Numbered from the stretch's first letter, positions 1,443 through 4,091 are shown. The stretch: 31,049 bases of DNA from a bacterium (GCA_040752695.1 JBFMGO010000075.1:1-31049), one strand, 5' to 3'. Notes: a model not told the origin generated them from the sequence alone. Numbers and translations: made by a program.

Positions 1443-2240
1443 GTGGGAACGCTGAATACGGGCAGGAATTTGTACTACAATCAGATTGGGAAAATTGTCT
1501 CGAATACTTCGACCAGCCTCAGCATTTCATGGCAAGATATTACGGGACTTACGTTTATAAACTACAAGTACGATGTGGTTTACTCCATTGAATATTATGC
1601 AGGAAAGGGCACCAAAGCTGGCATTAGAATCACGGACACCACGAAAGACTTACATCAATATCTGCCGTCATTGGTGGGTTATAAGGTCGTCATTTGCAGC
1701 AGTCCGGGAAGTTCTCAAAAAATTGCCATAGGTCAGGTCGTGCAAAGTCAGCCCACCTGGTTCGAGGTAGATCAATGGATTGACTGGAAAGCCCGCACGG
1801 GAGTCCCTATTGGAGGCATACCTGCAGACGGAACGGTCGGCTACTACTTCTCCGTAACAGGAAAGACCCTGATGTGCTCCGACTGCCATAGTAATAATGA
1901 GATTTCCGGGACTTCAGCCCAGGGGCCGCATGGCTCCACAGTCAAATGGATGCTGAAAGGGCGAAACAGGGCCTGGCCTACCTTGTCAGCCTCAGAGAAC
2001 GGAACGGGAACAGGCACTTTACGCAAGATCGGAAACACCGCTACTCCTAACCATAGATCCGTAAAAGACGGGAATCCGGATGGGAATGGCCTGTTTTGCT
2101 TGAACTGCCACTCCACGGTGAGTTTTTCCAAAAATAAATACGGAGTCCAGGATGCCACCAATATCCATCTTATTCATGCTGCTGGTTGGCCCGATGGGCC
2201 TGAATGTGTGAGGTGTCACATCCTTTGGCTAAAAATATAA
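1443..2240 (+). pseudogene. Multiheme cytochrome c fragment, probably truncated at both ends
   Basis: Three CXXCH motifs (CSDCH 1875, CLNCH 2097, CVRCH 2205) and GPHGS after the first. No signal peptide. The open frame continues upstream of the GTG to a TAG at 1413. It stops 6 codons after the last CXXCH. Confidence 0.6.
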
Positions 2241-2374
2241 AAATGGTTTTTTTGTCCAACGCCCCGAAAAGGCAAAATAAGATCGTTGGTTTTTTCTCCA
2301 GTGCTATCACGACTTCAGTATTCCTTCCGGCATAGTTAACCATCTGATTAATGCTCATAAATGATCAAAATCTA

Positions 2375-2403
2375 TTGCTTCTAAATCCATTTAGTGCTAT
2401 TAT
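2375..2403 (+). promoter_or_regulatory. Sigma70-type promoter with extended -10
   Basis: TTGCTT (2375-2380), 17-nt spacer, TATTAT (2398-2403), TG at 2395-2396; an overlapping TATAAT lies at 2401-2406. Confidence 0.55.
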
Positions 2404-2409
2404 AATAAC

Positions 2410-2620
2410 AGATAAGCAAGAAGTTATTGGTAAGGTTTCAGCAAAGAGGTGCTTTGCAGGTAAACACTCTCTAGCGAACATTACCAAGAATAGAAAAAGA
2501 TTGGGCCGTCAGCATTATAGGCTTTGCGAAAATCTTCTCGGAGAGGAAACTCTCCGGGAGGATTCCTACCCGAAAGGGTAGGTAAGCGAAGTCTACAATA
2601 CTGGCGGTCTTTTTATTTCT
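2410..2620 (+). ncRNA. Candidate structured non-coding RNA, family unknown (three-way junction with two GAAA tetraloops)
   Basis: P1 2503-2527/2586-2610 (23 of 25 positions pair, including G-U). P2 2532-2545/2550-2563 (14 bp, GAAA loop). P3 2565-2571/2576-2582 (7 bp, GAAA loop). U-rich tail 2610-2620 and an upstream promoter. Confidence 0.55.
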
Positions 2621-3120
2621 GCCCGTCAAGAAACGGTGGTGGATGCTTTTGGCAACTGTGATTATGCCCTGCTAAATTCCCCGCCGATATCCTATAACCG
2701 GCATAAACCCAACATTTGTGATACCAGCCGCAATAAGGGTAATATCAATTAGAAGAAACTCTATTTCTTCTTGACTAACTTCTAACTACAGTGAAAAAAT
2801 AATTCTATTTTTGACGTTTTCTTTAATATCCCATAGTCCAAGCGGCCTTTCTGTTCTATTCCACATTTCAAGAGCAGCATCCATGGCCTGTTGGAGGTCT
2901 GTATATTCCGGATCATCTGGAATCGGTTTTGTTCTGGTACTGGCCGCCAAGGCCTCCCTGAGCGGAAGGTTTGCACGTCAAAAGCAGAGCGGGGGACGGA
3001 AAATAGAAATCCTCTTGTCATTATTTCACCCTCTCCCACAGGTTGTCTGAACTGCCATAAATTTTGGTCACTTAATCACCTCTATTCACCAGTGCATTTC
3101 TGGTGCACGTTTTTATGGGA

Positions 3121-3152
3121 TATTGATAATTAATAACTTATTGATAATTAAT
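3121..3152. repeat. 14-bp direct repeat TATTGATAATTAAT x2, possible regulator site
   Basis: Exact copies at 3121-3134 and 3139-3152, just upstream of the extended -10 at 3189. Confidence 0.5.
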
Positions 3153-3188
3153 GAAAATGGCTAAAGAATAGCATTTTTATCAATAAAG

Positions 3189-3197
3189 TGCTATAAT
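3189..3197 (+). promoter_or_regulatory. Extended -10 promoter for the OmpA-family gene
   Basis: TGcTATAAT at 3189-3197; no good -35. Confidence 0.4.
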
Positions 3198-3419
3198 CGG
3201 CATGATATTATTACCAGGACAATGCCATGTCATTTCGAACAAAGGGGTATGAATGGCGCTGTCCTGCCTTGAATTTGAGTGAAGGAACAGGCTGTCTGTT
3301 CCGATCAGATAACTGATCGGCATATCCTTCATAGATAAGTCCGTCTTACCAGAGTTCTCATTAATATATGCGGCTTGGCTGAGCCGCGAGCGGGATAATC
3401 CGTAAACCAGAGGAGGTCA

Positions 3420-4091
3420 ATGATGAAAAAAAGTACAGCTTGTATCGCAATCTTAATCTTTTTTACCGGTTCTGTTTGTTTGAGCGGCTGCGGAGCCAAC
3501 AATTTAACGAAAGGTGCTGGGATTGGTGCAGCAGCAGGTGCGGCTATCGGTGGCATCATAGGAAACCAGTCGGGGCATGCAGGTCAGGGCGCTGTTATCG
3601 GAGGTGTTGCCGGTGGCGCTCTTGGTGCTCTTATTGGGAGGCGGCTGGATAAGCAGCAGGAGGAATTACAAAAGGTTCCTGGAATGCAGAGTGTGCAGGT
3701 CGATGAAGAGAAACAGTCGATTAATGCAGCGCTGCAAGTACTCTTTACGGTAAACAGTGAAGAGATTAAATCGGGTGAAGCCCAAAAACTTGATGAACTT
3801 GCAGCAGTTTTTGCCAAATATCCGGAAAATATCGTGGTCATTGAAGGGCATACTGACAGCGATGGTTCGGAAGAGTATAATCAAAAACTTTCAGAAAAAA
3901 GAGCTCGGTCTGTAGAAAATTATCTCAGGGGAAAAAGAATCAATATCGCAAGCCTCAGTTCTGTAGGGTACGGCGAATCAAGACCGATTGCGTCAAATTA
4001 TACTTCGGAAGGAAAAGCGGCTAACCGCCGTGTAGAACTCAAAATCTCCGTTGATCCGAACAAGGTTCCACAGGAAGAAGTAAAAAACTAG
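3420..4091 (+). CDS. OmpA-family outer-membrane lipoprotein (YiaD-like, glycine zipper plus OmpA C-terminal domain)
   Basis: GAGGAGG RBS, lipobox LSGC, glycine zipper GAGIGAAAGAAIGG, and GHTD..GSEEYNQKLSEKRA, GYGESRP, NRRVE motifs. Confidence 0.93.
   Translation: MMKKSTACIAILIFFTGSVCLSGCGANNLTKGAGIGAAAGAAIGGIIGNQSGHAGQGAVIGGVAGGALGALIGRRLDKQQEELQKVPGMQSVQVDEEKQSINAALQVLFTVNSEEIKSGEAQKLDELAAVFAKYPENIVVIEGHTDSDGSEEYNQKLSEKRARSVENYLRGKRINIASLSSVGYGESRPIASNYTSEGKAANRRVELKISVDPNKVPQEEVKN

Follow-up and report, generated by a model that had tools for sequence, protein, structure and literature searches.

The window examined in this study is a stretch of 31,049 nucleotides (nt) of bacterial DNA (GCA_040752695.1 JBFMGO010000075.1:1-31049, whose numbering is used throughout, on the plus strand unless marked otherwise). 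Positions 2503-2619 of its plus strand are probably, if far from certainly, the gene of a structured small RNA that is transcribed independently and belongs to a lineage-restricted, multicopy family of siblings. Such a gene would comprise a promoter-like element, a closing stem (P1) of 23 pairs, a junction box (GUGAAAA on the 5' side and a GAUA-type sequence on the 3' side), a variable apex and a U-run, where the apex may take the shape of a Y (a variable hairpin, P2, and a short capped hairpin, P3) or of a plain loop. A sequence-only reading of this region had described a two-domain RNA of about 210 nt and interpreted it as either a free-standing small RNA or a leader whose gene was lost; its observation, the fold itself, is confirmed, and its interpretation is partly supported.

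On the plus strand, region 2408-2625 reaches a minimum free energy (MFE) of -89.8 kcal/mol, compared to -53.6 +/- 4.3 in 200 dinucleotide-preserving shuffles of the same region (z -8.5; 0 of 200 as good), a check that the sequence-only reading had suggested, and the minus strand is weaker (MFE -75.9, z -6.7). In the MFE fold (Table 1), the P1 stem predicted by that reading is reproduced, with 25 positions made up of 23 pairs and two A-C mismatches (C2513/A2600 and A2517/C2596), and encloses two GAAA-capped hairpins, P2 and P3, joined to it by the junction strands GAA and UAA and followed by a U-rich tail. The 7-bp P3 and the linkers are as described there, the arm given as 14 bp (P2) has 15 bp once the proposed A2531-U2564 pair is counted, and the 3' domain contains exactly seven G-U pairs, the number that had been set against the two A-C mismatches. 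The closing helix of a 5' domain was likewise recovered; an inner hairpin GCAAAG/CTTTGC (2441-2457) lies outside the MFE fold, and its arms are non-complementary in the closest relative, a copy on metagenome contig L019.

Two covariance models, R1 (built from 6 copies) and R2 (built from 23 copies and restricted to P1), were run over all 20 genomes of the window's phylum in the collection, which are also the 20 genomes of its class. R2 matches with E up to 0.001, once opposite-strand doubles were dropped, define 30 loci spread over 6 of the 20 genomes, a multicopy nature that the sequence-only reading had not foreseen. The window's genome (G000) contains three loci, namely the window copy, a decayed copy on contig C18 and a distant copy on C39 without a U-run, while its congener G002 contains one. 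Genomes of the same family contain four (G003), 13 (G004) and eight (G005), and a genome of a neighboring family contains one (G012). No loci were found in G001, a 96% complete genome of the same genus, or in the 13 other genomes of the phylum; weaker R1 matches in G011, G013 and G014 failed R2 and consist of a plain perfect hairpin followed by a U-run. Two further copies lie on metagenome contigs, L019 and L024, the latter being a short form of the RNA. The family is restricted so far to one order of an uncultivated phylum of 20 species. Unless noted otherwise, features are given below for an inspected set of 27 copies, consisting of 25 of the 30 loci together with L019 and L024; three copies of G004 (C153, C150 and C143) and one of G005 (C115) lie outside this set, and the G004 copy on C155 was inspected separately.

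A 19-nt degenerate motif taken from the 3' arm of P1, scanned for exact matches, identified eight stretches in species-representative genomes, two of which are G004 copies, and 12 stretches in metagenome contigs, two of which are true members (L019 and L024); viral contigs gave 0 matches. The other six genome matches were rejected as chance matches, none of them folding into the hairpin of the family, and the other 10 metagenome matches (two of them identical) were also attributed to chance. Two copies on G005 contig C265 (L069; 1106-1208 and 1501-1597) are in tandem, 300 nt apart, and the interval between them holds another TGGTAAAAT promoter-like element and a possible degenerate third copy. 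In the C155 copy (60-145; L006/L068), the first P1 bases are replaced by the end of a multicopy insertion sequence (IS), which recurs at the ends of many contigs in G002, G004 and G005 (15, 7 and 7 matches, respectively) and was not found in G000. A likeness of about 11 nt between window positions 2477-2488 and this IS end was treated as coincidence, the IS not having been found in G000.

BLAST within the same genome aligned the copy on C18 (77% identity), and BLAST in the congener aligned the G002 copy (83% identity), in both cases with the alignment confined to the 3' domain. L019 matches window positions 2234-2740 at 80% identity and retains the promoter, leader and 5' domain, whereas G002 has nothing in common with the window beyond approximately 50 nt ahead of P1. 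Because the upstream parts are common only to the window and L019, the conserved unit consists of P1, its contents and the U-run. The functional unit thus appears to be the 3' domain (2503-2619), approximately 110 nt long, and not the two-domain RNA proposed in the sequence-only reading.

Table 1. Features of the RNA gene and its upstream region in the window. L019, metagenome contig with the closest relative; G002, genome of the same genus; bp, base pairs.
Feature	Position	Strand	Basis or remark
Sigma-70-type promoter (predicted)	2375..2406	+	Sequence reading; kept in L019
Unpaired purine-rich 5' leader	2411..2426	+	MFE fold; exists only if the sigma-70-type promoter is the start
Lineage-specific 5' domain	2427..2487	+	MFE fold; UUGGUAA 2427-2433 pairs with UUACCAA 2481-2487
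Probable relic of second promoter type (GTAGYR, 16-17 nt, YCGAWA)	2459..2492	+	Alignment with L019 and G002
A-rich linker with potential to pair with the U-tail	2488..2502	+	MFE fold: 2491-2500 pairs with 2612-2621
P1 5' arm, family-wide closing stem	2503..2527	+	MFE fold; covariation
J1/2 junction strand GAA	2528..2530	+	Within conserved box GUGAAAA at top of P1 (alignments A9 and A10)
P2, variable arm, 15 bp, GAAA loop	2531..2564	+	2531-2545 with 2550-2564
P3, short conserved hairpin UCURCC-loop-GGYRGA, 7 bp, GAAA loop	2565..2582	+	2565-2571 with 2576-2582
J3/1 junction strand UAA	2583..2585	+	AUA, AUAU or AUUA in other copies
P1 3' arm	2586..2610	+	MFE fold; covariation
U-rich tail	2611..2620	+	Sequence reading; resembles an intrinsic terminator together with P1

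The pairing of P1 is conserved across the family. When 23 copies are aligned with MAFFT, standard pairs fill 87.5% of P1 cells, compared to 33-49% after sliding the 3' partner by 1-3 columns, and double-sided changes occur at 14 of the 23 pairs, in 47 cells. In 500 column shuffles, the observed percentage of paired cells, number of double-change cells and covariation score were each reached 0 times, the number of pairs with a double change was reached once and the number of further pair types 4 times; these counts are not probabilities, because the compared sequences are paralogues and close relatives, and the alignments are partly model-fitted. The 529 P1 cells include 350 Watson-Crick pairs, 112 G-U pairs, 10 A-C mismatches and 56 other combinations. 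Since each G-U pair becomes a C-A mismatch on the opposite strand, this asymmetry indicates selection on a plus-strand RNA and, together with the compensatory changes, bears out the preference of the sequence-only reading for an RNA over a DNA palindrome. The R1 score for the window is correspondingly 136.7 bits on the plus strand versus 38 bits on the minus strand.

Above P1, the copies diversify. Among the window, L019 and G002, P2 shows compensatory changes (C-G to A-U and G-C to A-U), and in more distant copies it is substituted by hairpins of unrelated sequence and length. P3 is present in the 11 plus-strand rows of alignment A10, where one pair alternates between A-U, G-C and G-U, and it is capped by GAAA, GAAG, UGCG, GGGA, GAGA or longer loops; across the hairpins of the family, GCAA loops are also found. 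Several copies (G004 C122, C213 and C145; L024; G005 C393) contain neither P2 nor P3, with a loop of 30-35 nt instead. The double-GAAA three-way junction, which the sequence-only reading had treated as the hallmark of the element, therefore represents only one of the shapes that the variable apex takes. Constancy among unpaired bases is highest at the junction, with a GUGAAAA box on its 5' side and GAUA, AUAU or UAA on its 3' side.

At least five U residues occur within 9 nt after P1 in 23 of the 27 copies, so that P1 and the U-run together have the sequence expected of an intrinsic-terminator 3' end, although a terminator scan of the window did not list them. Ahead of P1, two kinds of promoter-like element were observed. 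The first consists of TTGTTT, a spacer of approximately 18 nt and TGGTAAAAT or TAGTAAAAT, and ends 4-11 nt ahead of P1; an extended -10 (regular expression TGnTAnnnW) lies no more than 14 nt from P1 in eight of the 27 copies, and several others have a plain -10 of the TAAAAT type. From elements of this kind, the RNA would start at the foot of P1. The second, a putative promoter, consists of GTAGYR, 16-17 nt and YCGAWA. Its YCGAW motif was found in 13 copies, one of which (G000 C39) is probably incidental, at a distance from P1 of 11-16 nt in most copies and 22-28 nt in four. The promoter-like sequence is common to paralogues in unrelated contexts, and conservation among paralogues stops at this element on one side and at the U-run on the other. 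The -10-like part of YCGAWA resembles a sigma-28 box, but a classical sigma-28 promoter was rejected for the YCGAW copies because they have no TAAAG, carrying GTAGYR instead, and their spacing is 2-3 nt longer, which places them off the canonical FliA pattern. Flagellins are encoded in all five genomes searched, and the flagellin genes of G002-G005 (L082, L085, L087, L089 and L079) have a canonical sigma-28-type TAAAG-N14-YCCGATAA upstream.

The copy in the window departs from this arrangement. The second type of element is intact in G002 (GTAGTT, 17 nt, CCGATA), has a spacer 3-4 nt longer in L019 and, in the window, combines a longer spacer with a 6-nt deletion that converts CCGATAGATAG to CCAAG and also takes out the -10-like box. 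The window lineage seems to have swapped to a sigma-70-type promoter approximately 95 nt upstream; having lost the usual proximal promoter, the window and L019 would have added a lineage-specific 5' domain, which in the window consists in part of the dead promoter. The predicted upstream promoter has the -35 hexamer TTGCTT at 2375-2380, a 17-nt spacer and the -10 hexamer TATTAT at 2398-2403, with TG at 2395-2396, one base ahead of TATTAT, and an overlapping TATAAT at 2401-2406; its counterpart in L019 is TTGTTT-17-TACTAT. The window's hexamers TTGCTT and TATTAT, the spacer and the TG are as the sequence-only reading gave them, yet its rating of the promoter as a good one was not matched by a consensus promoter scan of the window, which missed it because the -35 hexamer fits at only three of six positions. 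Its strength would thus reside in the extended -10, and transcription would start at approximately 2410-2413. In the leader that would follow, a 14-nt stretch is identical in L019, and the leader is absent from other copies. The closing helix of the 5' domain is maintained in L019 via one compensatory change (U-A to C-G), and the congener G002 is without the 5' half of the domain. A-rich stretches resembling the window linker are also found ahead of P1 in L019 and G002.

No gene is linked to the family. A Pfam scan of 65 open reading frames (ORFs) flanking 21 loci revealed no common neighbor, consistent with the free-standing small RNA of the sequence-only reading; the neighbors are housekeeping genes of all kinds, and the only families seen twice (SLT, OMP decarboxylase and HTH_3) occur in differing arrangements. 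Many copies are faced by a convergent gene. In the window itself, no plus-strand ORF with a Pfam family was found within 2240-3420, in agreement with the earlier remark that no convincing coding sequence follows. A 242-amino-acid gene that is divergent from the RNA gene in L019 was considered as a shared partner and rejected, since it is absent beside other copies and only fragments of it occur in G000.

How such an RNA would act can be described only in conditional terms. P1 and the junction sequence are more constant than pairing requires while the apex diversifies, and for this reason the P1-junction module is read as a constant handle for a recognizing factor and the variable apex as the part that would make the siblings differ in specificity. 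The unpaired leader (2411-2426) gained in the window lineage may share the latter role, as may the linker (2488-2502), and P1 with the U-run would most likely serve transcription end and RNA protection. It is quite possible, though short of an even chance, that the siblings act in trans by base pairing with mRNAs. Some short copies, three of the 27, have an exposed CCUCC or CUCC in the apical loop, which would suit the occlusion of ribosome-binding sites; such an anti-Shine-Dalgarno seed was rejected as a family feature because so few copies expose it. A structured RNA that binds or sequesters a protein, or that forms part of a ribonucleoprotein (RNP), is a plausible but tentative option. A protein-binding or processed RNA is a better fit to the Y-shaped copies, including that of the window, because they are nearly fully paired and show compensatory evolution. 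A sponge of the CsrB/RsmZ type was rejected, as CsrA was not found in five genomes of the family searched (see below) and GGA is not a constant loop motif. A selfish repeat is quite unlikely, and other options share the remainder.

A more specific proposal, which we regard as doubtful, is that the family represents the RNA half of an undescribed RNP system peculiar to this uncultivated phylum. The double-stranded handle formed by P1 and GUGAAAA/GAUA would then be bound or processed by a lineage-specific protein, with RNase III-type excision at the 23-bp stem as one candidate activity, and a diversifying cargo at the apex would be presented or released by this handle. The dozen siblings would act as a set of interchangeable specificity modules, part of which would be switched on by an alternative sigma factor via GTAGYR-N16/17-YCGAWA.

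Several observations weigh against the interpretation as a family of independently transcribed small RNAs. A search of sequencing runs returned no RNA run containing the stretch, and four DNA runs gave only 151-nt contig pieces from relatives. Four of the 27 copies have no U-rich tail, and the copy on C18 is decayed (z -1.9). The Y-shaped copies are nearly all paired, exposing tetraloops only, so that a base-pairing seed is not visible. A fuzzy whole-genome search for trans targets with either P1 arm, on both strands, returned the RNA itself, the C18 copy and scattered matches with three mismatches. Hfq, ProQ/FinO and CsrA (PF02599) were each found in none of five nearly complete genomes of family f1 (G000, G001, G002, G004 and G005), and TROVE/Ro (PF05731) was found in none of the 20 genomes of the phylum, while control genomes gave matches; these searches thus identified neither a target site nor a partner protein. 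The relatedness of the compared copies tempers the shuffle counts, as noted above. Finally, copy number ranges from 0 to 13 among related genomes, positions are non-syntenic and repeat debris surrounds the window copy, and a selfish element would look alike.

The last of these points is the core of an alternative in which the family is a selfish palindromic DNA repeat, either a miniature inverted-repeat transposable element (MITE) or a repetitive extragenic palindrome (REP), with the P1 arms as terminal inverted repeats and transcription as an incidental property. Besides the volatile copy number and non-syntenic positions, this would account for arms that look like inverted repeats of approximately 23 bp, for the repeat elements that adjoin the window copy and are common to contigs C8, C12, C140, C134 and C80, and for the recurrence of the 500-bp block around the window copy in another context in L019, where it is flanked by a 36-37-nt direct repeat. 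However, an excess of 112 G-U over 10 A-C cells in P1 is a strand asymmetry foreign to pairing at the DNA level, P1 has compensatory changes at 14 of 23 pairs, and most copies carry an oriented promoter-like element and a U-run. The flanks have no conserved ends beyond the promoter, although target-site duplications were not systematically searched for. The copies have also diverged, with 77-83% identity at best within the genus and 77% at best within a genome, and because they are not near-identical, the observation that the sequence-only reading named as pointing to a REP or MITE was not made. We consequently regard such a repeat as improbable. The alternative that the sequence-only reading itself had entertained, a leader, attenuator or orphan riboswitch acting in cis on a downstream gene that has since been lost, draws on the resemblance to an aptamer of the three-way junction, with its conserved nucleotides and capped helices, on a P1 and U-run that resemble a terminator expression platform and on the approximately 800 nt without a plus-strand gene after the window copy. 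It is very unlikely nonetheless: no downstream gene family recurs across the 21 loci and no gene is linked, a convergent gene lies at many copies, the terminator stem is the same as the stem that would close the aptamer, with no alternative antiterminator pairing seen, P2 and P3 are wholly absent from several copies and no Rfam riboswitch matched.

Two further explanations borrow from known RNAs, and both seem to us highly improbable. The family shares with the type I toxin-antitoxin RNAs, such as Sib/QUAD of E. coli, a multicopy, lineage-restricted and intergenic occurrence, strong structure and a length of approximately 100 nt, and a tiny toxin ORF could lie opposite or alongside; a 10-codon hydrophobic ORF (2643-2675, plus strand), preceded by GGTGG, does follow the window copy and is kept in L019 with three conservative replacements. 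Known type I toxins are longer than 10 codons, and this ORF, present in the two closest relatives only, is too short and too narrowly distributed for a gene call. Conservation among the paralogues ends at the promoter and U-run, the variable apex has no room for a conserved antisense ORF and, in a check by eye with no dedicated small-ORF search, no hydrophobic frame was seen opposite the RNA in the window, L019 or G002. In the other explanation, the terminal stem would bind a Ro-type protein and the variable apex would tether other factors, as in Y RNAs, whose layout is the same, with a long and conserved stem at the termini, a module at the apex that varies, a U-rich 3' end and several paralogues. 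Against this stand the lack of TROVE/Ro matches in all 20 genomes, with positive controls, and of any match to Y_RNA or related Rfam families. Overall, an independently transcribed sibling RNA remains the explanation that we prefer.

The window copy sits in rearranged, repeat-rich DNA, a setting that feeds the mobile-element explanation and leaves the RNA-level evidence unchanged. On its upstream side, positions 2249-2358 (minus strand) hold an N-terminal relic, with approximately 17 conserved codons (MEKKPTILF...-like), of the 242-amino-acid protein, which belongs to no Pfam family; L019 carries the gene intact (2306-3034, plus strand), and the C-terminal part of the protein (amino acids 154-241, 82-88% identity) is found in pieces on G000 C134 (4717-4982). 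Downstream, a 36-nt motif at 2705-2740 (plus strand) recurs on G000 C134 and C8 and occurs twice in L019, where two direct copies approximately 470 bp apart bracket the RNA gene; an attachment-like or regulatory role is possible. It is followed at 2745-2830 by a member of a repeat family, also present on C8, C12, C140, C80 and C134, which consists of a hairpin (AGAAGAAA/TTTCTTCT) and then a conserved segment of approximately 50 nt; the window member is without a 60-nt middle segment present in the others. On C8, this repeat lies upstream of a 377-amino-acid gene that is a transposase-like candidate by eye. Minus-strand coding at 2672-2785 was rejected, since only one of six differences from L019 is synonymous and the frame is thus not constrained. 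Farther downstream, region 3121-3420 (plus strand) contains a direct repeat, ATTGATAATTAAT, twice, followed by an extended -10, TGCTATAAT (approximately 3190-3198). A leader of approximately 210 nt, with no Rfam match, lies between TGCTATAAT and an OmpA-family lipoprotein gene (3420-4091).

As the sequence-only reading had noted, the element matches no cataloged RNA class. With Rfam 15, 0 matches reached the gathering thresholds across the whole window, region 2200-3450 gave a serC leader alone at E up to 10 (12.9 bits versus a threshold of 35) and 20 loci holding family members (55,519 bases) gave one off-target miRNA model elsewhere at E up to 0.1 (30.6 bits versus 90). A full-text literature search, not made by organism name, found no description of such an RNA family. 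The structured family supported by covariation is therefore new and uncataloged, while an orphan multicopy small RNA is already known as a kind of thing. These findings add a covariation-supported RNA family to a phylum known only from 20 metagenome-derived species, in a lineage in which searches for four RNA partner proteins (Hfq, ProQ, CsrA and Ro) found none of them. The family is unusual in that a genome may contain as many as 13 diverged copies and in that its promoter-like elements are of two kinds, and its conserved closing helix and varying apex are the reverse of most base-pairing small RNAs. Should the RNAs have a partner protein or undergo processing, they would offer an entry point to post-transcriptional control in an unstudied lineage; otherwise, the family would be one more orphan small RNA.

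Compared to known systems, the family has partial counterparts only. Like Rho-independent terminators, it has a G+C-rich stem base, a U-run and an upstream A-rich stretch able to pair with the tail, but its 23-pair stem is conserved in sequence, holds a structured insert of 60-90 nt and is accompanied by a promoter-like element of its own. MITE and REP elements share its inverted-repeat arms, variable core, intergenic position and multicopy, variable occurrence, but differ in its one-strand dominance of G-U pairs, compensatory changes, oriented promoter-like element and U-run, and lack of near-identical copies. The Sib/QUAD type I antitoxins of E. coli are multicopy structured RNAs of approximately 100-140 nt with a narrow host range, all of which is comparable; unlike them, the family showed no conserved small ORF opposite or beside its copies in a check by eye. 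Y RNAs and their Ro60/Rsr partners offer a terminal stem formed from both ends, a variable apex, a U-rich tail and paralogues, whereas here none of the 20 genomes yielded a Ro/TROVE gene and copy number reaches 13. In known families of sibling small RNAs, the conserved part is a short single-stranded seed or protein-binding motif; in contrast, the window family conserves a long closing helix and junction while its exposed parts vary, and the usual partners, Hfq, ProQ and CsrA, were not found in the five genomes searched. Sibling families nevertheless provide the closest likeness in other respects. As with LhrC1-5 of Listeria, NgncR_162/163 of Neisseria and the duplicated CsrB (PMC5880928, PMC9973317, PMC6262261), several diverged copies occur within a genome, some of them in tandem, are intergenic and confined to a lineage, carry their own promoter-like element and terminator-like end, and appear to be driven by different promoters in different copies.

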